The position numbers and the translations under genes are program-made. DNA of 27,074 bases from a virus. Its lineage: Duplodnaviria; Caudoviricetes. The first letter of the stretch is position 1, and the number at the start of each line of letters is the position of its first letter. The stretch is from positions 1 through 27,074 of IMG/VR virus record IMGVR_UViG_3300046817_000104. The stretch is one strand, 5' to 3'. The notes beneath the pieces were generated by a model, which had not been told where the DNA came from, ran no database searches, and saw nothing but the letters and a program-made list of their open reading frames with translations. Shown here in pieces: positions 324 to 10,763 of the stretch.

Positions 324-361
324 TTGCGCTTCCCCTGCTCGCCGTGGTAGTCCCCTAGATG
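324..361 (+). promoter_or_regulatory. Putative sigma70-type promoter of the TIGR array 1/tas transcript, overlapping a self-target of guide 1
   Basis: TTGCGC (324-329) and TGG-TAGTCC (345-353), preceded by an A-rich tract (311-317), in the only intergenic gap before the array. Nt 344-361 match guide 1 at 15/18. Confidence 0.5.
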
Positions 362-367
362 TCTTCC

Positions 368-658
368 AGCCGTGGAAGCCGAGTGTGCCGATCTAGGGGA
401 GCGAGCCGCACGAGAAGAGAGTGCCGACTATGCCGAGCGAGCCAGGGTGGCTGAGTGTGCCAACCGAGATGAGCGAGCCAGCGCGCGTGAGAGTGTCATG
501 AAGCGAGAGCGAGCCGCGAAATACGAGAGTGCCGTCAGAAGGAAGCGAGCCACGAGTGCTGAGATTACCGGAGCACGCGAGCGAGCCGTACCCCGTGAGA
601 GTACCAACACAAGCGAGCGAGCCGCAGCCTGCGAGAGTGCCGACCACCAGAGAGCGAG
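368..658 (+). repeat. TIGR dual-repeat guide-RNA array 1 (8 units, 36-nt period)
   Basis: Loop repeats GAG(A/T)GT(G/A)CC-like at 381, 417, 453, 489, 525, 561, 597, 633. Edge repeats GAGCGAGCC at 399, 435, 471, 507, 543 (AAGCGAGCC), 579, 615. Spacer pairs A/B: gtggaagcc/gatctaggg, gcacgagaa/gactatgcc, agggtggct/aaccgagat, agcgcgcgt/atgaagcga, gcgaaatac/gtcagaagg, acgagtgct/ggagcacgc, gtaccccgt/aacacaagc, gcagcctgc/gaccaccag. Confidence 0.93.
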
Positions 659-665
659 GACCACA

Positions 666-1835
666 GTGAAACCACCCACCCAGAAGACCGGTAGAGGCGC
701 CCGGAACAAGGCGCCTCCACCACCCCCACCCGACGTCGAGCCAGAGCAGCCGCTGGGCCCCGAGGACTTCCTGGAGATGCAGCCGCTCGATCTGGTGACC
801 GACGCGCTCGATCTGCTGCGCCACGGTGCCAACGGTGGTGGCCAGGAGCTGACCAAGGGCCTGTTCCAGCGGCTCGATGCGCTGCACCAGCTGATGACCG
901 GCACGATGGATCCCGGCCTGCTGACGCCGATCCAGAAGCTGACGGCGGATCTGAAGAAGGCCAGCCGCACCCTCGGCCGCGCCGAAGCACGCTTCCTCAC
1001 CGATGCCTACTACACGATGCAGGAGAATCGCATCCGCACGCGGCATCAGGTCACCACCCTGGCGCAGCCGAAGGATACCGAGAAGGCGCCTGAATCTGCC
1101 GATGGCGAGGCGCCGAAGGAGAGAGTGCCCGAGCCGTATGACGTGCTCGAATGGCTATTCACCCAGGAGGATGCGCTGGAGGTGCAGATCCGGGGCACGC
1201 TGAACATCTACAGCCTGAGCAACCGGCCAGGGATCTGGGCCCGCAGCATCAAGGGCATCGGCCCGGTGATCGCGGCAGGATTGCTGGCCCATATCGACAT
1301 CCGGCGGGCGCCGACGGTCGGGCACATCTGGCGCTTCGCGGGGCTCGACCCGACCAGCGTCTGGGGTAAGGGCGAGAAGCGGCCGTGGAACGCCGCGCTG
1401 AAGCGGCTGTGCTATCTGATCGGCGAGAGCTTCGTGAAGGTGTGCAACCGCCCCGACAGCCTGTATGGCCAGCTCTACAAGGCGCGCAAGGAATGGGAGA
1501 CCGAGCGTAACTCGCGCCAACTGTATGCCGATCAGGCCAAGCTGGCGCTGGAGACCAAGAGCTACAGCAAGGAGACCGACGCGTTCAAGTGGTACAGCCA
1601 GGGCATGCTACCACCGGCTCGTATACACGCGCGTAGCCACAGACGCGCCACCAAGGTGTTCCTCTCGCATCTGCACGAGGTGATGTATTGGCACGAGTAT
1701 GGCAAGCTGCCGCCGCATCCGTATGTGCTGGATCATGTGCCGGGGCATGTGCATAGCCTGGAGATCCCGAACGTCGACATGATCTTCCCGGAGCTTTACG
1801 AGGCGCGTCAGCGGGCGCAGCGTAACAAGCGTTAG
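666..1835 (+). CDS. tasA: TIGR-associated Nop-domain RNA-guided DNA-binding protein (TasA-like; IS110/IS116-related C-terminal domain, no evident nuclease), about 389 aa
   Basis: Motifs SIKGIGPVIAAGLLAHID…GHIWRFAGLDP, WNAALKRLCYLIGESFVK, YGQLYKARKE and HARSHRRATKVFLSHL are typical of the IS110 Transposase_20/Nop fold. No DEDD RuvC N-terminus, no HNH and no IS110 catalytic SG motif after AGLDP. GTG at 666 follows RBS GAGGA (656-660). Flanked by TIGR arrays on both sides. Confidence 0.82.
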   Translation: MKPPTQKTGRGARNKAPPPPPPDVEPEQPLGPEDFLEMQPLDLVTDALDLLRHGANGGGQELTKGLFQRLDALHQLMTGTMDPGLLTPIQKLTADLKKASRTLGRAEARFLTDAYYTMQENRIRTRHQVTTLAQPKDTEKAPESADGEAPKERVPEPYDVLEWLFTQEDALEVQIRGTLNIYSLSNRPGIWARSIKGIGPVIAAGLLAHIDIRRAPTVGHIWRFAGLDPTSVWGKGEKRPWNAALKRLCYLIGESFVKVCNRPDSLYGQLYKARKEWETERNSRQLYADQAKLALETKSYSKETDAFKWYSQGMLPPARIHARSHRRATKVFLSHLHEVMYWHEYGKLPPHPYVLDHVPGHVHSLEIPNVDMIFPELYEARQRAQRNKR

Positions 1836-2049
1836 CCGACATGCCTGAGAGTGCCGACTATGTGGAGCGAGCCTTGTCATCGGAGCGTGCCGAGCATCGC
1901 GAGCGAGCCGCTTCCGGCGAGTGTGCCGTATACAGTGAGCGAGCCGAGCGAGCCGAGAGTATCGACCCAGACGAGCGAGCCGATTGGTCAGAGAGTGCCG
2001 AGAAGAACGAGCTAACCACGGCAATTGAGAGTGCCGAGAAGTGTGAGTG
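1834..2049 (+). repeat. TIGR array 2 (6 units) directly after the tas stop codon
   Basis: Loops at 1847, 1883, 1919, 1955, 1991, 2027; edges at 1865, 1901, 1937, 1973, 2009 (GAGCTAACC). Spacer pairs: gacatgcct/gactatgtg, ttgtcatcg/gagcatcgc, gcttccggc/gtatacagt, gagcgagcc/gacccagac, gattggtca/gagaagaac, acggcaatt/gagaagtgt. Confidence 0.92.
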
Positions 2050-2064
2050 TGATATAACCAGAGC

Positions 2065-3942
2065 ATGTCCGGTGCGTTAGGCACGATTGGTTATCCGACC
2101 CTGCCGACGCCCGGACCGTCGGCGCTATCGTCGTTTGGAGGATCCAGTGGCCCACCCACCCAAGGGCAGCAGTCAATTGGCCCAGCAGTCCCACAGCTAC
2201 CAGCGGTCCACCCCGCAGATCCATCGCGAAGCGGACAAGCTGCTGGAGGAGCTGGTGGACAAGCTGGTGCAGCAGGGGCTTACACGGGAAGAAGCGCGGG
2301 AGCATCTGAGGCACTGGGTCTAGGCCCACCGGTCAAGACCATCTGGAGCGCCAACCGCAGCTACCACAACGCCGACAATCCCGACTACCATGAGCTTCAC
2401 CCCGAGGGCGCGCACGCGTTCCACGCCGCGATCGCCGAGGCCAAGCACGGTCACCCGGCCGGTGCTGCCGTCACCCAGTATCCGGCCGAGGACTACCGCA
2501 AGATGCGGCTGTTCCAGACCAAGGAAGGCGACGCCGGGTTCGCCCTGAAGGGCGACGACATCGTCTCGGTGTTCAAACATCCGAAGGCGCCATACCGTAA
2601 CGTCACCCGATCGATGCTGGATCTCGCCAAGCAGGAGGGCGGCAGGCGGCTCGATGCGTTTGATACCGTGCTGCCGCACATCTACGCGCAGAACGGGTTC
2701 CGCACCGTGGCGCGGCTGCCGTGGAACGAGGACTACAAGCCCGAGGGCTGGAACCACGACGCGTTCAAGCAGTTCAAGGGCGGCAGGCCTGACGTGGTGT
2801 TCATGGCGCATGACCCGCAGGCAGGCGCCTACAACCCTGGTGACGGCCGCACGGTCAGCGACTATGACGAGGGCACGGCAGCGCAGCACGCCGCCCTGGC
2901 GCACGTCGCAGCGCGCGGCAACGTGCCAGCAGCGCCCGGCCCGGAGAGCTACGGCAGCGGCCAGCTGATCAGGATGTCGGATCCTCAGACGGTGTGGCAC
3001 GGCACGCAGCACGAATTCAAACCGACGCGCGTCAATCAGTTGGGCGAGTTCGATCTCAGCAAGATGAGCAGCGGCGAAGGCGGCCAGATGTATGGCCACG
3101 GCGCCTATACCGGTGGCGCCAGGGGGACGGGTGAGGCATACCGGAAGAACCTAGCCGAGGGCGCGAAATATAAGGGCCAGTCAGATCCCATGGGCCTCAG
3201 TGGCCACGATTACAATGCGGCCAGAGAGGTGCTTGATACGATCCACGAGCACGGCATGGCGCCCCAGCAGGCGATCGAGCATGTACGACAGACGCATGAG
3301 CAAGAGGCGGCGAATGCGTTCAGCAAGCCCCAGAGCCACGTCTGGCAGTCATGGCAGGAAGCGGGACATCGCTCTGCTGGCATAGCGGACGCGGTACAGA
3401 GACTGAAGCTAGAGGATTTCACGCATAACCCTGGCCACCTCTACGAAGCCGAGCTGCACATCGACCAGGATCATATGCTGCACTGGGACCATCCCATCGG
3501 GCAGCAGCACCCGTATGTGCAGAGCAGGGCTATCCCTCTCGCTCCATCCGCCTCGATCGGCAGCAAGATGACCGGTCAGATGCTGCACGACTATCTGACC
3601 GGAGGCGACAAGACGCGCAGGCCGATAGCTGCAGAGAAACTGCTGAACGCTGGTATTCCTGGCATCAAGTATGTGGATCAAGACAGCCGGTTAACAGATG
3701 TTGGTCCCTACACTACGGGTGACGGCAAAAGAGCATGGGCTGTGTTCCATAGGAACAATAATTTTCCTCTCGCCACATTCAACACGAAAGAAGAGGCGCA
3801 AGCCCATCTCGAAGCCCACCATCGTACGCACAACTACGTTGTGTTCGATCCAAGAACGATCAACATCGTGAAGCGTAACGGCCTGCCAGCGATGGTGGAT
3901 GCGGGTGCCGATGCGTTGCGCGATCATAAGGCGACAGGCTGA
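2065..3942 (+). CDS. Polyvalent phage protein: GNAT-like domain plus ADP-ribosyltransferase-like (ART-PolyVal-type) domain
   Basis: Long ORF. The segment DIVSVF…LDLAKQEGGRRLDAFDTVLPHIYAQNGF resembles GNAT motifs A/B. VWHGTQHEF…FDLSKMSSGEGGQMYGHGAY…GHLYEAEL…AGIPGIKY…NYVVFDP matches the ART-like domain of phage polyvalent proteins. Confidence 0.6.
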   Translation: MSGALGTIGYPTLPTPGPSALSSFGGSSGPPTQGQQSIGPAVPQLPAVHPADPSRSGQAAGGAGGQAGAAGAYTGRSAGASEALGLGPPVKTIWSANRSYHNADNPDYHELHPEGAHAFHAAIAEAKHGHPAGAAVTQYPAEDYRKMRLFQTKEGDAGFALKGDDIVSVFKHPKAPYRNVTRSMLDLAKQEGGRRLDAFDTVLPHIYAQNGFRTVARLPWNEDYKPEGWNHDAFKQFKGGRPDVVFMAHDPQAGAYNPGDGRTVSDYDEGTAAQHAALAHVAARGNVPAAPGPESYGSGQLIRMSDPQTVWHGTQHEFKPTRVNQLGEFDLSKMSSGEGGQMYGHGAYTGGARGTGEAYRKNLAEGAKYKGQSDPMGLSGHDYNAAREVLDTIHEHGMAPQQAIEHVRQTHEQEAANAFSKPQSHVWQSWQEAGHRSAGIADAVQRLKLEDFTHNPGHLYEAELHIDQDHMLHWDHPIGQQHPYVQSRAIPLAPSASIGSKMTGQMLHDYLTGGDKTRRPIAAEKLLNAGIPGIKYVDQDSRLTDVGPYTTGDGKRAWAVFHRNNNFPLATFNTKEEAQAHLEAHHRTHNYVVFDPRTINIVKRNGLPAMVDAGADALRDHKATG

Positions 3943-5972
3943 TGGCACTTGGCACGATCCCCTATCCGCAGCTCAACCGGCCAGAGGACGACACCAATCC
4001 GTTGCAGAAGTATAAGGACCAGCTCAACCCGCTGGGCCAGCTGACGCACCAGATGTTCGCGCCCCCGGCGCCGCCGCCGATCCCGCCGATCGACCCGAGG
4101 ATCGCGCAGCACATGACGCAGATGGGTGCGCAGGGGATGACGCCGACGCAGCTGGCGCCGCCCCCGTCGCCGCTGGCCGCGCCGCCACCGGCTCCACCGC
4201 CGCCCGCACCGCCGATGGCGGCGCCATCACCACCACCCGCGCTCTCGATGATGCCTGGACCGCAGGGGGCGGCCATGCTGCGCGCTGCAGCGCCTGGGAT
4301 GGCGCCCGGCGCGCCAGGGGATGGTGGTCCGCATGATCTGACGCAGTTTGCCCAGGATCCCACCAGCGGCGGCCTCGTTCGCCAGCGTGGCGCCGTGGCG
4401 CAGCGGCTCGCGGCACAGACCATGGGCAGCGTCCCGACGTTCGCTGGTGGCGGTGGTGGCAGCGCCGCCCTGGCGCAGGCCGGTGGCCGTCCGCTGGCAC
4501 CCGAGGACGCGCAGGGCGTGATCGCGCCGCCGTCGGCCGCAGGCGCTGACCCGGCGGTCGACAGCCAGTCGCACAACCGCATCTCGACCCGCATCCCGTC
4601 CGAGCCTGCGCAGAAGAAGGCTGGTATCGACGCGCATGCGACGTCTGGTCTGTCGATCGATATGAACAGCATGAACGCGGCGACCGACCAGAAGGCCAAG
4701 AACGCCGCGATCATCAAGCAGCATTATCCGGGGTTCGCTCATTTGCGCACTGACAATCCCGACCAGATCAATGAGGCCTTCATCAGGCACGCCAAGGACA
4801 ATCTGGTCTGGCTCTATCGCAAGATGAACGACAAGAACGGACCGATCGGTCCTGGCATCGTCGAGCGCGCCAAGCGCTGGTACAGCGGTGCCAACAAGAT
4901 CGCGCATGATCTGGCCAAGGAATTCGGTGTCCAGCCATATCAGGCGGCGGCGGTGCTGGCATCGCTGAGCCCGCAGAAGGATTGGTATCAGAACGTCGAT
5001 CTGGCCCGCCGCGCGTTCACTGCCCACAAGCTGGGCAACAACTGGACGATGACGGAGGAGATGAAGAACTACTCCGACAAGTACATCGCCTCGTTGGAGA
5101 AAGCCGCTGCCAATCCCAAGACCCGCAAGGGGGAGAACCCGGAGGAGAATATCGGCGAGCTGCGGGAGCTGCAGCAGAAGTTCCACGGTACGCCGATGTC
5201 GGAGCTGACCGACCCCTATGAGCGTGCGGTGTTCGCGCGTTGGCACGACGAAGCGCACACCCCGCGCTCCTACAAGATGGTGACGCCCGAAGGCGAGATG
5301 GGCGACACCGCAATGATCCCGGCGAAGTACACCAAGAAGGGTAAGCTGAAGGAGGCATCGAGGCCGCGCGACGTCACCTGGGGCAGCTTCAGCGAGATCC
5401 AGAAGGCCATGGCGGCGCTGCAGAACGCCGATCTGCCCGAGGTCTCGCGGCTGATGGGCAAGGCCCACAAGGTGCGCAATTTCTTCAACAACATCATCGC
5501 GCCGCATCACGGTCACGACGTCACGATCGACACCCACGCGATCGCCGCCGCGTTGCTGCGACCGCTCGGTGCCAGCGCCATGGAGGTCGCCCACGGGCTG
5601 GGCACCAACCCGAAGCAGTCCAAGGAGGAGGGCGCGGTGAAGCTGCCGCAGGCTGGCAACAGCATGACGCTGGGCAACAAGGGCATGTATGGCCTGTATG
5701 CCGAGGCCTACCGGCAGGCCGCCAAGGATCTGGGGATCCTGCCGCGCGAGCTGCAGTCAGTGACCTGGGAAGGCATCCGGGGCATCTTCAGTCCTGAGCA
5801 GAAGCGCAACCCTGGCTTCGTGCGTGAGATCGCCGATATGTGGCGCAACAAGGGCGCGCATCGTGGAAAAACGCCAGATGAGAGACGAGAGGCTATCCTT
5901 ACTCATGCGGGCGGGTTAAAACTGCCCAGTTGGGCAGGAGGAGTGGATCATGGCGACGACGCCGAAGACTAA
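3942..5972 (+). CDS. Large phage protein: Pro-rich N-terminus plus helix-hairpin-helix DNA-glycosylase-like domain
   Basis: TGATG coupling to the previous gene. Motifs WYSGA…AAAVLASLSPQKDWYQN…KVRNFFNNI…VTIDTHA…YAEAYRQAA…PRELQSVTW recur in phage HhH-glycosylase-like proteins; the function is inferred. Confidence 0.55.
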   Translation: MALGTIPYPQLNRPEDDTNPLQKYKDQLNPLGQLTHQMFAPPAPPPIPPIDPRIAQHMTQMGAQGMTPTQLAPPPSPLAAPPPAPPPPAPPMAAPSPPPALSMMPGPQGAAMLRAAAPGMAPGAPGDGGPHDLTQFAQDPTSGGLVRQRGAVAQRLAAQTMGSVPTFAGGGGGSAALAQAGGRPLAPEDAQGVIAPPSAAGADPAVDSQSHNRISTRIPSEPAQKKAGIDAHATSGLSIDMNSMNAATDQKAKNAAIIKQHYPGFAHLRTDNPDQINEAFIRHAKDNLVWLYRKMNDKNGPIGPGIVERAKRWYSGANKIAHDLAKEFGVQPYQAAAVLASLSPQKDWYQNVDLARRAFTAHKLGNNWTMTEEMKNYSDKYIASLEKAAANPKTRKGENPEENIGELRELQQKFHGTPMSELTDPYERAVFARWHDEAHTPRSYKMVTPEGEMGDTAMIPAKYTKKGKLKEASRPRDVTWGSFSEIQKAMAALQNADLPEVSRLMGKAHKVRNFFNNIIAPHHGHDVTIDTHAIAAALLRPLGASAMEVAHGLGTNPKQSKEEGAVKLPQAGNSMTLGNKGMYGLYAEAYRQAAKDLGILPRELQSVTWEGIRGIFSPEQKRNPGFVREIADMWRNKGAHRGKTPDERREAILTHAGGLKLPSWAGGVDHGDDAED

Positions 5973-6156
5973 GATTGACTGGGAACCGTATCGCGGCACC
6001 AACGGGACGTTGGACTACATGCTGAAGAAGGGCATCGAGCCGACGCGGGAGAATTATATCTTCATGGACTATGGCGGGAAGCCGCCTGAGCCGTGGACGG
6101 CGGAGCATGAGAGCATGCTCCCCGAGCCGCTCCAGGAGGGCTACAAGGATGACTGA
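5950..6156 (+). CDS. Small acidic hypothetical phage protein (68 aa)
   Basis: RBS-like GGAG upstream. Overlaps the end of the previous gene and is TGATG-coupled to terL. Confidence 0.75.
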   Translation: MATTPKTKIDWEPYRGTNGTLDYMLKKGIEPTRENYIFMDYGGKPPEPWTAEHESMLPEPLQEGYKDD

Positions 6157-7667
6157 TGCCGCGCCCGAGTCTCGACTTTAACACAGCAGATATCCCCACG
6201 ATCCACGCGTTCCTGCACGATGACGCGTTCATCCGGGGGCTGATGGGTCCGTTCGGTAGCGCAAAGAGTTCCGGATGTCTGTGGGATATCGTTAACCGCA
6301 GCCTCAAGCAGACACCAGGACCGGACGGCATCCGGCGCAGCCGTTGGGCGATCATCCGCAATACGTATAGACAACTGAACGACACCACGATCAGGACCGT
6401 CCACCAATGGTTCCCGTATCCCATGATGGGGATCTGGCGCAGCACCGAGCACGAGTATCTGCTGAACCGGCTGATCGCGCACGGCGACAAGAAATGCGCG
6501 GAAATCGAGCTGCTGTTCCGCGCCCTCGACCGGCCCGACCATGTGCGCAATCTACTGTCGCTCGACCTGACCGGCGCCTGGGTGAACGAAGCCAGGGAGG
6601 TGCCTTGGACGATCATTGATGCGCTGCAAGGCCGTGTCGATCGCTACCCCGCCAAGCGCGACGGCGGCGCGACGTGGGCGGGCATCATCATGGACACCAA
6701 CCCGCCCGACACCGATTCGTCGTGGTACAAGTTCTTCGAGCAGATGGACCACACCGAGGCGGTCGAGCAGCTGGCGCAGTTCATCCCCGGCATGACGGTC
6801 GATCGCTATGCCCGCATCTTCAAGCAACCCTCGGGGCTGAGCCCCAACGCCGAGAACAAGAGCAACCAGAGCCCCGGCTACTGGCAGCGCCTCGCGATCG
6901 GCAAGACCGATGAATGGATCCGGGTTTATTGCAAGGGCGAATATGGTTTCGTCACCGAGGGCAAGCCGGTGTTCCCCGAATACCACGACAACATCCATTG
7001 CCCAGGCAGCGCCGACGAGAAGCGGGCGCCGAAGACCGATCCCAGACTGCCGGTGCATCGCGGCTGGGACTTCGGGCTGACGCCTGCGGTGGTGTTCAGC
7101 CAGCTCGCAGCAAGTGGCCAGTGGAAGGTGGTTGACGAGCTGTGCGCCGATAGCATGGGCATCGACCGGTTCAGCGACCGGGTGCTGTCACACTCGACGC
7201 AATACTTCCCCGACAGCGAGTTCGTTGACGTGGGCGACCCGGCTGGCGACAGCCGCGCCGAGACCGATGAGCGCACCTGCTTCGGTATCCTGCACAACAA
7301 AGGCATCAACATCGAGCCGGGGATGCAGTCGCCGCAGATCCGCCAGGAGGCGGTGCGCAAACCGCTGCGCCAGTTCGATGACGACGGCCGCCCGGCGTTC
7401 AACCTGCACCCCCGCTGCGCGCGGTTGCGACGGGCGCTGATGGGTGGCTACCACTACCGCCGCATTCAGATGGCGGGCAACGAGCGATGGGCCGAGAAGC
7501 CCGAGAAGAATTCGTATTCGCACCCGGCTGATGCGCTGCAATACACCGCGACGCGGCTGTTCGGCCCCAGCCTGCAGTGGAAGGGCGATCAGGTCGACAA
7601 CGAGATGATTGAGCTGAACTCTCGCTTGGTGCAGGATCGCACGCGTAGTCGAACGACGGGCTACTAG
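6156..7667 (+). CDS. terL: Terminase large subunit
   Basis: Walker A-like GPFGSAKSS, Walker B LTGAWVNEARE, coupling motif DTNPP, and nuclease motifs GWDFG, GDPAG and SHPADALQY. Confidence 0.95.
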   Translation: MPRPSLDFNTADIPTIHAFLHDDAFIRGLMGPFGSAKSSGCLWDIVNRSLKQTPGPDGIRRSRWAIIRNTYRQLNDTTIRTVHQWFPYPMMGIWRSTEHEYLLNRLIAHGDKKCAEIELLFRALDRPDHVRNLLSLDLTGAWVNEAREVPWTIIDALQGRVDRYPAKRDGGATWAGIIMDTNPPDTDSSWYKFFEQMDHTEAVEQLAQFIPGMTVDRYARIFKQPSGLSPNAENKSNQSPGYWQRLAIGKTDEWIRVYCKGEYGFVTEGKPVFPEYHDNIHCPGSADEKRAPKTDPRLPVHRGWDFGLTPAVVFSQLAASGQWKVVDELCADSMGIDRFSDRVLSHSTQYFPDSEFVDVGDPAGDSRAETDERTCFGILHNKGINIEPGMQSPQIRQEAVRKPLRQFDDDGRPAFNLHPRCARLRRALMGGYHYRRIQMAGNERWAEKPEKNSYSHPADALQYTATRLFGPSLQWKGDQVDNEMIELNSRLVQDRTRSRTTGY

Positions 7668-7813
7668 CCGCCTTCGCAGAGAGTGCCGTTGTAGATGAGC
7701 GAGCCACGCCACGGGAGAGTACCGTCAATCCAGAGCGAGCCGTGCTGCTGGAGGATACCAAGCCACAGAAGCGAGCCAGTTCAAGCGAGAGTGCCGCCAC
7801 AGGAGAGCGAGTC
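7666..7813 (+). repeat. TIGR array 3 (4 units), satellite array directly after the terL stop
   Basis: Loops at 7679, 7715, 7751 (GAGGATACC), 7787; edges at 7697, 7733, 7769 (AAGCGAGCC), 7805 (GAGCGAGTC). Spacer pairs: gccttcgca/gttgtagat, acgccacgg/gtcaatcca, gtgctgctg/aagccacag, agttcaagc/gccacagga. Confidence 0.92.
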
Positions 7814-7854
7814 TGTCATCATCTTTAATCGTCCCGCGTGATGTCGCAGCGCGC

Positions 7855-8076
7855 ATGCTGGATCAGGCGTGCGCCACCTGCCGGTTCTCGCGGAAGGATC
7901 CATCCGGCGATCGCAACTGCCACCGCGATCCGCCGACGTCGTTCCTCATCCCATTGCCGGGCAAGCTGAACATCGAGATCAAGGCATACAGCTCGCACCC
8001 GATCGTGCGCGACGACGACTGGTGCGGATCATGGGCCCAGCGCGGCGACACCACGCCGCTCACACGCCCTGATTGA
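7855..8076 (+). CDS. Small Cys-rich (probable metal-binding) phage protein
   Basis: Four-cysteine pattern CATCRF…CHRDPP…HPIVRDDDWCGSW, typical of small phage proteins. Confidence 0.75.
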   Translation: MLDQACATCRFSRKDPSGDRNCHRDPPTSFLIPLPGKLNIEIKAYSSHPIVRDDDWCGSWAQRGDTTPLTRPD

Positions 8077-8135
8077 CGCCAGCATAAGCACTGATTGACA
8101 TCACGGACCCGCGAAGCGTCTATATATAGATATAG
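8069..8135 (+). promoter_or_regulatory. Putative promoter/operator upstream of the portal gene
   Basis: Direct repeat CTGATTGAC at 8069 and 8091, TTGACA at 8095-8100, and a perfect AT-rich palindrome TCTATATATAGA at 8119-8130. The -35/-10 spacing is longer than canonical. Confidence 0.45.
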
Positions 8136-8169
8136 CCGTACTGCTGGAGGGTGCCGATATCCATGAGCG
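8134..8169 (+). repeat. Solo TIGR-like unit overlapping the portal RBS and start codon
   Basis: AGCC-gtactgctg-GAGGGTGCC-gatatccat-GAGCG: exactly 36 nt with the same register as the array units. Confidence 0.75.
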
Positions 8170-10763
8170 CCGCGTTAAGCGCGTTTCCGGCGCCAGGACC
8201 ATCGCCGGATCAGGACGACCCGAATCAGCCCCAGGATGGTGACACCAACCAGGGGCCGCCCCCCGATGACCCCGAGCAGCAGCCGCTAAAATCCGCTGAC
8301 ATCCTGCCGCTGCGCCCGCCAGGGCAGGAGCAGAACGACGGCCTCGGTGATCCCCGCCAGAGCCAGGGCGAGCAGCGACCGCTGCTGAAGCCGCAGTATG
8401 CGCGGAAGTTCGCCCGCTGGATCGTGCGCAAGAACATTGCCGACGAGATCGATGACAGCGAGCGGCAGCGCCTCGCGGATCAGGCGAAGCGGGAATACGA
8501 GCTCGACGAAGAGACCCGCTCGGACTGGAAGCAGCGCTACGGCGACTGGATGGACTTTGCGCTGCAGGTGATGCAGCCGAAGACGTATCCCTGGCCCGAC
8601 GCGTCGAACGTGTGCTTCCCGCTGATCACGGTGGCGGCGTTGCAGTTCAATGCGCGCGCCTACCCGGCGATCGTGCAGGGCCGCAACGTGGTCAAGGGCA
8701 CGGTGATCGGTGACGACCGTGGCGTGCCGATGATGATGCCAGCGCAGCCGCCTGGAGGTATGATGCCGCCCGGTGGCCCTGGAGGTGGAGCTGGTGGTCC
8801 TGCGCCGCCGGGGATGCCAGGAGGCGCTCCTGGCGGTCTGGGTGGGCCCCAACCAGGGGCGCCTCCACCGATGCCGGGACTTCCTCCCATGCCGCCCGGC
8901 GCTGGTGGTGCGCAGCTCGGCCCACCCGGAGCACCCGGCCAGGGCGGCCCGCCGCAGCCGCAGGGACCGCAGCAGGCGACCAGCCCCGACGGGCGGCAGC
9001 TGTGGATCCAGCCACCAGGGTCCAAGCAGGCGCGCGCCGACCGCATCGGCCGCCACATGTCGTGGCAGCTGCTCAGCGAGATGCCCGAGTGGGAGGAGCA
9101 GACCGACCGGTTGCTGATCACCGTGGCGATCGCCGGGACCATGTTCCGCAAGAACCACTTCGACCCCAAGCAGCGGCGCAATGTGTCGGAGATCGTATCG
9201 GCGCTCAGATTGTGCGTGAACTACACGGCGAAAAGTTTCGACGCGGCACCGCGCAAGAGCGAGCTGATCGACTTCTACCCGTGGGAGATCGAGAGCAACA
9301 TCCGCTCAGGCCTGTGGGTCGATTACGGTGAGGACGGCTACGGCCGCAACACCGACACCAGCCAGGACGAGCAGGCGCCGGTCACGTTCATCGAGCAGCA
9401 CCGCCGCTACGATCTGGACGACGACGGCTACGAGGAGCCGCTGATCGTTACGTTTGCCAGGGATTCGGGCAAGCTGGCGCGCATCACGGTGGGGTTCGAC
9501 CAGGACGGCATCGAGGCAACCGACGACGGTGAGGTCGCCGAGATCAATCAGATCGATTACTATACGAAATACGGTTTCATTCCGAACCCGGAAGGCGGCG
9601 CCTACGATCTGGGGTTCGGTTCGCTGATGTATCCGCTCAATGCAGCGGTCAACACCAGCATCAACCAGATGTTCGACGCGGGGCATCTGCAGATCGCGGG
9701 CGGCGGTTTCATCGGCGGCGGCGTGTCGATCAACGCCGGGTCGGTGCGGTTCATGACCGGTGAATACAAGGTGGTCACCACGCAGGGGCGTACGCTGCGC
9801 GAGAACCTCGTGCCGCTGGAGATGCCGGGGCCGAACGCGGTGCTGTTCCAGCTGCTGCAGTTCCTGGTCGAGGCGGCGAAGGACATCGGCTCGATCAAGG
9901 AGGTACTACAGGGCCAGCTGCCCGGCGCGAATGTTCCGGGGATCCTCGGTCTGGCAGTGATCCAGCAAGGGCTGAAGGTGTTCAATGCGATCTTCAAACG
10001 CATCCATAGATCTCTCCGCCAGGACTTCGACAAACTATTCCGGCTCAACCGTCTGTATCTCCCTGACGAAGCCGGTTTTAGGATCGGTTCCGAATACTTC
10101 CAGATCACGCGCGCCGATTACCTCAGAGGGTCGGGGGCTGAGCCGGTATCAGATCCGGACATGGTCACCGACACCCAGCAGATGGCGCAGGCTAACTTCC
10201 TCCTGCAGTTCGTGGGCGACCCGTTCTTTGACGGCCGTGAGATCCGCCTGCGCGCGATGCAGGCGGCGTCCATCCAGCAGGTAGACAAGCTGCTGGCACC
10301 GCAGGCGCCGCCCAATGCCGAGCTGGTGCAGGCGGCAGCCAGCCTCGATCTGCAGAAGCAACAAGTCGACATTGCCGGTCAGATGGCGAACCTGCGCAAC
10401 AAGGAGCTGGATATTCGTTTCGCTCATGAGCAGGCGGACATTCTGATCCGGCGCGGCAAGGACAAGGCGAGCGAGATTAAGGAACTGTCGCAGGCGATTC
10501 TCAATCTGGCCAATGCGCGCAAGGCTGACGCCGATGTCGACCAGAACTGGTACAACGTGCAACTGACAGCCTTGAAACATCAGGTGGATATGCTGAATGC
10601 TCTCACTGACACCGGAACTGATGGCGAGGGTGGTAACGCCAGCGGAGGAGGTGGCAGCGGAGCGCCGCCCGGCCTTGCTCGATCTGTCGGAGCAGGACTA
10701 TCAGCTGTGGCTGAGACACCCGGTGTCGGTGCAGATCTTCCTGTGGCTGGCGGATTATCGTGA
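8163..10763 (+). CDS. Portal protein
   Basis: Position after terL. Motifs KTYPWPDASNVCFPLITVAALQFNARAY, IEQHRRYDLDDDGYEEPLIVT and INQMFDAGHL. ATG 8163 follows GGAGGG (8146-8151); GTG 8151 is an alternative start. Confidence 0.9.
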   Translation: MSAALSAFPAPGPSPDQDDPNQPQDGDTNQGPPPDDPEQQPLKSADILPLRPPGQEQNDGLGDPRQSQGEQRPLLKPQYARKFARWIVRKNIADEIDDSERQRLADQAKREYELDEETRSDWKQRYGDWMDFALQVMQPKTYPWPDASNVCFPLITVAALQFNARAYPAIVQGRNVVKGTVIGDDRGVPMMMPAQPPGGMMPPGGPGGGAGGPAPPGMPGGAPGGLGGPQPGAPPPMPGLPPMPPGAGGAQLGPPGAPGQGGPPQPQGPQQATSPDGRQLWIQPPGSKQARADRIGRHMSWQLLSEMPEWEEQTDRLLITVAIAGTMFRKNHFDPKQRRNVSEIVSALRLCVNYTAKSFDAAPRKSELIDFYPWEIESNIRSGLWVDYGEDGYGRNTDTSQDEQAPVTFIEQHRRYDLDDDGYEEPLIVTFARDSGKLARITVGFDQDGIEATDDGEVAEINQIDYYTKYGFIPNPEGGAYDLGFGSLMYPLNAAVNTSINQMFDAGHLQIAGGGFIGGGVSINAGSVRFMTGEYKVVTTQGRTLRENLVPLEMPGPNAVLFQLLQFLVEAAKDIGSIKEVLQGQLPGANVPGILGLAVIQQGLKVFNAIFKRIHRSLRQDFDKLFRLNRLYLPDEAGFRIGSEYFQITRADYLRGSGAEPVSDPDMVTDTQQMAQANFLLQFVGDPFFDGREIRLRAMQAASIQQVDKLLAPQAPPNAELVQAAASLDLQKQQVDIAGQMANLRNKELDIRFAHEQADILIRRGKDKASEIKELSQAILNLANARKADADVDQNWYNVQLTALKHQVDMLNALTDTGTDGEGGNASGGGGSGAPPGLARSVGAGLSAVAETPGVGADLPVAGGLS

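Follow-up and report, generated by a model that had tools for sequence, protein, structure and literature searches.

A TIGR-TasA system in the 27,074-nucleotide (nt) stretch of phage DNA analyzed here (IMG/VR record IMGVR_UViG_3300046817_000104, hereafter the window) carries a guide which matches the promoter-like leader of its own array. The window belongs to a virus record with terminase-like, portal and capsid genes; two of its arrays lie on either side of a single gene, tasA, and a third sits 3′ of the terminase-like gene (Table 1). Sequence comparison reveals a conserved, covarying self-target in one TIGR-TasA clade, and we propose that it mediates RNA-guided autorepression of the array–tasA transcript, a reading to which we assign a probability of about 0.78. 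Since the guide matches its own predicted promoter, and since guide and site covary, it is likely that the system dampens transcription of its own locus.

In the window, guide 1 (spacer A, 373-380; spacer B, 391-398) matches positions 345-360 at 14 of 16 positions. Spacer B is matched in full (8/8) as its reverse complement at 353-360, and spacer A in direct orientation at 345-352, at six of eight positions (mismatches at A4 and A7). When the 14 guides of arrays 1 and 2 were compared with the whole window, array DNA being left unmasked, this was the sole match of at least 14/16 among 757,624 guide-position pairs, and none of 3000 shuffles of the 60-nt leader reached 14 with any of the seven parsed array-1 guides. 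An earlier sequence-only reading had described the same match as 15/18 at 344-361, with spacers of nine nucleotides. Such a match is present (mismatches at positions 5, 8 and 18), but its boundaries are off by one, as the spacers are 8 nt long, and the mismatch it had assigned to B1 falls in box C, outside the spacer. Its tandem-spacer rule, in contrast, agrees with the published opposite-strand order, A followed by the reverse complement of B (A+rc(B)). By our own derivation, this is the only order which fits the published C-5 cut rule together with 8-nt 3′ overhangs.

The homologue analysis started from 80 loci, 54 of them non-redundant with parsed arrays, among which a leader match of the first unit was found only in the window's own contig and its two closest relatives. 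Further scans added L081 and L088 after the rule had been set, and both fit it unchanged; a repeat-pattern scan added L179, L181 and L201, in which the self guide is, respectively, unit 2, the unit following a ~60-nt insert, and unit 1 with a weak loop. In a quick tree built from 105 Tas proteins, the eight non-redundant loci thus obtained group as a single clade (Shimodaira–Hasegawa-like approximate likelihood ratio support of 100; no bootstrap, the careful tree search being unfinished). They represent every non-redundant clade locus with upstream DNA, L086 (64% identity, 3′ part only) and close proteins matching no fetched locus being left out. A promoter-plus-unit pattern scan and a scan with P0012 yielded no new clade loci, and the annotated phage collection contained no relative.

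All guides of each leader-proximal array were scored against each 60-nt leader. In 8/8 clade loci, a leader-proximal guide matches its own leader, with scores of 14, 13, 14, 13, 13, 13, 14 and 14 of 16, while foreign guide-leader pairs average 10.05 and reach 13 in one case out of 56. The true assignment of guides to leaders is the best of 40,320 permutations, and between 0 and 22 of 3000 leader shuffles per locus reach the locus's own score. The self guides are mutually identical at 2/14 to 12/16 positions, and at the 83 positions (summed over pairs) where sites in the same register differ, both guides follow their own site in 60 cases and are identical in 8. The sequence-only reading had claimed that the first guide targets the promoter-like leader and had named covariation of unit-1 spacers with their leaders in homologous loci as the check. 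This covariation is borne out in all eight loci and supports self-targeting, with the qualification that the self guide is the first unit in six of the eight loci, the window's among them, and the second in two.

The matches share a common geometry. All eight self-sites show the tandem opposite-strand order without a gap, and a gap of 0 is better than gaps of 1-2 in each of them. Reversing the order (rc(B)+A), or swapping loop and edge in the phase, gave 9-12 of 16 and no clustered leader matches; same-strand order reached 15 in the window, where it reflects a hairpin, and 13 in L081, where it was not traced to a guide. By half, 47/64 positions match in A and 61/64 in B, against an expected 25%, and A5-A7 accounts for 15 of the 20 mismatches independently of the offset of the site, a concentration seen in 1/200,000 simulations with loci treated as independent. 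The self-site begins 0, 2 or 3 bases before the TA of the −10 and, as it occupies three different offsets, the guide appears to have been re-aimed.

TTG lies 16-18 nt 5′ of TA beneath the self-site in 8/8 clade loci. This pattern underlies 8 of the 21 clade matches of at least 13/16, one per locus, compared with 1/91 matches outside the clade and 5/111 in the control geometry. From this consensus, we infer a sigma-70-type promoter (324-353, +1 near 360) from which array 1, tasA and array 2 would be transcribed together; no terminator-like site was seen on the + strand between leader and tasA. The predicted +1 of L081 is 6 bases, and that of L088 5 bases, 5′ of spacer A, at or beside the predicted 5′ end of the tigRNA.

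L179 (2899-2982) and L181 (1906-2043), whose Tas proteins are near-identical, have self guides which are 7/16 alike, each matching its own site. An unrelated unit precedes the self guide in both, with a hairpin-like insert between the two in L181. By eye, a tRNA-like gene is also discernible in L181 (~1400-1500, minus strand), between the upstream array and the leader.

The locus itself is a phage dual-repeat TIGR-TasA system. Among 234 clade units, a purine follows the CC of the repeat in 100% of edge and 98% of loop repeats, and a G follows the spacer in 98-99%, from which repeats of 10 nt and spacers of 8 nt were deduced. The arrays thus consist of two alternating repeats and short variable spacers with a 36-nt period (10+8+10+8). 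Edge and loop repeats both start with GAG and end with CCR, in keeping with box C and box D; their ends have diverged from CCA/UG yet are common to edge and loop, as the description of dual-repeat TIGR systems allows (PMC12045711). The sequence-only reading had used the self match to decide which repeat is the loop, but edge and loop can be assigned independently of it, from the truncated first edge, as published, and from likeness to the TaTasR edge. By analogy, the array is predicted to be processed into 36-nt tigRNAs bound by Tas, tigRNA 1 comprising an edge remnant (368-372), spacer A, the loop (381-390), spacer B and half an edge (399-403). A leader match was also looked for at arrays 2 and 3, and none was found.

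The tasA product comprises a Pro/basic tail, clade-specific N-terminal helices, a coiled coil and a Nop domain. Its start codon is probably GTG 666, which lies 5 nt from the end of array 1 and five bases 3′ of a GAGGA made by the last edge repeat; the Pro-rich N-termini of relatives match that of the tasA product. Pfam searches returned PF02371 and, for 663-1835, no nuclease family, while phmmer gave E-values of 5.9e-11 to 9MTY (TasR) and 8e-06 to TasH, as expected of a Nop-domain Tas protein. A structure model starting at ATG 777 (predicted local distance difference test score of 89) contains helices only, with neither RuvC nor HNH, and its top ten Foldseek hits are all TasR or TasH; the extra 37 N-terminal residues before ATG 777 are Pro/basic. 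Since the model is all-helical and lacks a nuclease, the protein is a TasA. The Pro/basic tail, a conserved GPEDFL-like motif and the extra helices (window 666-970) are found in precisely those eight loci that carry the self guide. An atlas search with the N-terminal segment scored 0.76, a lead at best.

Table 1. Coordinates of the self-target, promoter-like elements, arrays and tasA in the window.
Feature	Positions	Strand	Remarks
Predicted −35-like hexamer TTGCGC	324..329	+	consensus reading; 18 nt before the −10
Self-target of guide 1	345..360	+	spans predicted −15 to +1
Predicted −10-like hexamer TAGTCC	348..353	+	TGn before it; no −7T; predicted +1 near 360
Second hairpin arm	361..368	+	reverse complement of spacer A at 7/8; window only, not conserved
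Array 1	363..661	+	8 units; pattern arises in 0/100 shuffles
Predicted tigRNA 1 (self guide)	368..403	+	36 nt; ends by analogy with TaTasR tigRNA1
tasA	666..1835	+	~389 amino acids from GTG 666 (start inferred)
Array 2	1829..2054	+	6 units; first edge remnant overlaps the tasA stop codon
Array 3	7661..7815	+	4 units; starts in the stop codon of the terminase-like gene

Several features of the arrays were noted besides. Clade genomes have several arrays each, dispersed among the ends of genes and amounting to up to ~78 units in 30 kb. Spacer A of unit 4 of array 2 (1947-1954) copies the edge repeat, which suggests slippage, and three loop-repeat-like words (89, 102 and 120) lie 5′ of the leader, outside the 36-nt register; the words in 89-130 are possibly a decayed array within the upstream open reading frame. 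A reading frame open from GTG 372 through array 1 continues into tasA (372-1835), likely a by-product of the 36-nt period and of repeats free of stop codons. At 8090-8170, a promoter-like stretch with TTGACA is followed by a solo TIGR-like unit, which overlaps the portal gene's likely start and ribosome-binding site. A relative, L218 (reverse strand, ~3192-3275), has a solo unit placed in the same way; its spacer A is nearly identical and also resembles spacer A of unit 3 of array 3. The best match of this solo unit in the phage is 13/16, and its local one 10/16.

A mechanism for autorepression can be proposed from these elements. Starting from the common transcript, TasA would process the 36-nt guides, and guide 1 in complex with the nuclease-free TasA dimer would unwind 345-360 (−15 to +1), exclude RNA polymerase and block initiation. 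The region from −15 to +1 overlaps that melted in the RNA polymerase open complex. The near-perfect B half combined with mismatches at A5-A7 would lead to partial binding, and the system would hence act as a rheostat instead of switching transcription off. Competition from the other guides for TasA would make output scale with guide load, as with CreR RNAs and Cas proteins. TasA and dead TasR repress E. coli reporters reversibly (Xu 2026, 10.64898/2026.09.09.750476), and dead TasH aimed at a promoter represses as well, spacer A engaging first, with bubbled substrates (Guan 2026, 10.64898/2026.08.11.744272). At a natural E. coli site, TasR was engaged with B fully paired and A paired at 6/9 (Faure 2025, PMC12045711), the same B-over-A asymmetry as in the clade self-sites.

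A number of observations weigh against this reading. The published seed includes A4-A5, and double mismatches abolish cleavage by SpTasH. As the mismatches touch the seed, binding of the self guide is probably partial, which would be useful for feedback but is also the main risk, since such binding may be too weak to repress. The published repression was obtained with designed guides, for stem-loop TasA and for dead TasR, whereas the locus here combines a dual-repeat TasA and a natural guide that carries mismatches. The promoter is a loose consensus, with an 18-nt spacer and no −7T in the window. The sequence-only reading had placed the site over the putative −10 and start region, and although the TTG/TA consensus does lie under it, a strict sigma-70 scan made no call for the leader. 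The −7T is absent from 6/8 clade hexamers, as would be typical if the host belonged to the Alphaproteobacteria (Myers 2021). L179, L181 and L201 were missed by the first-unit rule and recognized by manual reading, and the counts overstate independence because the eight loci are related, L179 and L181 having near-identical Tas proteins. In the window alone, moreover, a same-strand arrangement fits as well, which the sequence-only reading had overlooked: 353-368 is complementary to spacers A and B together (15/16), and the stretch 345-408 has a folding energy of −25.8 kcal/mol (z = −2.98).

The trait is also not general to TIGR, as it is not seen in the sister group, which likewise speaks against autorepression. 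Across 112 non-clade loci (1556 units; 2.5-3 kb flanks), one promoter-like match was found versus four in the control geometry; in 16 loci farther removed, of which 14 had units (87 in all), no match in the 130 nt upstream exceeded 10/16, and four near-complete sister genomes (43 units) had no such self match anywhere, arrays with 35- and 38-nt periods and several divergent, unparsed arrays being left out of these negatives. For several outgroup loci, the upstream array seems to start at the preceding gene's stop codon, leaving no local promoter to be hit. Among the other arrays of clade genomes, first units lack a leader match, and in four clade genomes (199 units) only the leader match recurs, other own-genome matches of at least 14/16 being no commoner than in the control. 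The flanking genes are common to the clade loci, and there is therefore no sign of a mobile cassette recognizing its own end; donor recognition of the IS110 bridge-RNA type was rejected on the same ground and for lack of a RuvC-like domain. When guides of one clade phage were compared with the other clade phages (G001-G004, L081, L082, L088 and L181), nine matches of at least 15/16 were found versus four in the control geometry. These include a 16/16 match of an L088 guide to G001, and a single L181 guide matches the same gene in two phages (window 2737). These cross-phage matches are a weak hint of targeting of related phages.

Other explanations of the match have to be considered. Targets of 16 nt are prone to false hits, with 109 matches of at least 13/16 among 1983 guides in their own loci and two other 14/16 matches in the phage's own DNA. 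Chance is nevertheless refuted by covariation in 8/8 loci and opposed by the permutation, shuffle, geometry and phase controls, and we give it practically no credence. Alternatively, the self guide could be a functionless relic of spacer writing, copied from DNA beside the array and then decaying. The site always lies within ~100 nt of the guide, the literature leaves TIGR spacer acquisition unexplained, and guide and site have changed together at many positions between close relatives, all of which would suit a relic. However, an unrelated unit precedes the self guide in L179 and L181, so that it is not simply the newest unit, and first units of other arrays in the same genomes have no leader match. 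Moreover, random decay would not be expected to concentrate the mismatches at A5-A7 and spare B almost entirely, and the site always covers the −10. We thus consider a relic very unlikely.

The hairpin in the window raises the possibility that the match acts at the RNA level, upstream read-through RNA folding on spacer B, and in the window also on spacer A, to control processing of the first unit. The 345-408 fold and the pairing of 353-368 with both spacers are consistent with this, as is the better match of B in most loci, its complement lying on the guide's own strand. But the A half, as a direct repeat (47/64), is unable to pair in RNA, the remaining seven clade loci match the second arm at just 0-2 of 8 positions, and, given the predicted +1, most of the complement of B would be untranscribed. 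A variant contig (run X22) carries changes at 365 and 367 which break the arm and another at 351, an already mismatched position, while the 14/16 match stays intact; this is weak evidence, as a single contig of depth 2.6 may be in error, and four further runs showed no variants in 250-520. Control at the RNA level is therefore judged highly improbable. A last alternative accepts the same binding with another main purpose: the promoter would also drive the downstream genes as far as the terminase-like gene, and guide and site, as a phage-specific repressor/operator, would time the packaging genes or escape cross-repression by relatives with the same repeats. The genes from array 2 to the terminase-like gene are on the same strand and closely packed, the single + strand terminator-like site in 1800-8400 lies inside an open reading frame, guide/site pairs differ even between L179 and L181, and one of 350 foreign guides reaches 13/16 on the promoter stretch of another locus. 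Yet chance alone would also produce this absence of cross-matching, and such a purpose is compatible with autorepression; we regard it as unlikely to be the main one. As a speculative extension, which we consider unlikely, self guide and promoter may constitute an RNA-programmed repressor/operator pair that is rewritten together, as in the immunity groups of temperate phages; with a pair of its own, each lineage would escape cross-repression by relatives having the same repeats and Tas. The many simultaneous matched changes between near-identical phages would then be the trace of TIGR spacer writing copying 16 bp from the open promoter.

Both TIGR-TasA and, from CRISPR, guide-based autorepression are already known. 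The locus resembles the dual-repeat TIGR-TasA systems of Faure 2025 (PMC12045711) in its 36-nt edge/A/loop/B units flanking a phage solo-Nop tas gene, in its truncated first edge and in the adjacency of A and B on opposite strands; the spacers of the clade are 8 nt long, like those of SpTIGR. It differs by the extra N-terminal helical segment of the clade and by a natural target, its own promoter-like leader, whereas that study calls genuine targets hard to identify. As in the repressors of Xu 2026 and Guan 2026, binding by a nuclease-free Tas would be enough to block transcription, but these involve designed guides on reporters and stem-loop systems or mutated TasH. No autoregulation was seen in the accessible text of either report, and in that of Zhou 2026 (PMC13421893) its sole mention is a Cas9 reference. 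More widely, no case of a TIGR guide directed against its own promoter turned up in the literature searched, which did not extend to the supplements of bioRxiv papers or to Yang 2026 (Mol Cell).

The closest parallel is the CreR/CreA mini-CRISPR system, in which the effector is led to its own promoter by a guide of partial complementarity, as predicted here, and other guides titrate the effector, as we also propose (Liu 2023, 10.1101/2023.03.10.532045). The same comparison applies to autorepression by the Cas9 long tracrRNA (Workman 2021, as cited in Liu 2023). In contrast to CreR and Cas9, the effector here is unrelated, there is no protospacer-adjacent motif, the guide is split (8+8) over both strands, and the guide that would regulate is one of the ordinary units of the main array, its repeats being normal. 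Since there is no nuclease to avoid, unlike in those systems, mismatches would tune affinity only. Membership in the CRISPR mini-arrays such as CreR was rejected, the effector being a Nop-domain Tas and the repeats those of TIGR. VIPR is likewise a phage-encoded RNA-guided silencing system, with another protein and another code, and its description reports no self-targeting matches above its threshold (10.64898/2026.04.26.720920).

The natural targets and role of TIGR guides, above all those of nuclease-free TasA, are stated as open questions in the literature. The clade provides eight natural guide-target pairs with covariation support, whose function is directly testable, and natural rules for the family: 8+8 nt, no gap, A then rc(B), and mismatches tolerated or favored at A5-A7. 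This match pattern could be used to filter false target hits and to tune Tas-based repressors. If autorepression is true, guide-directed autorepression would have arisen independently in CRISPR and TIGR.
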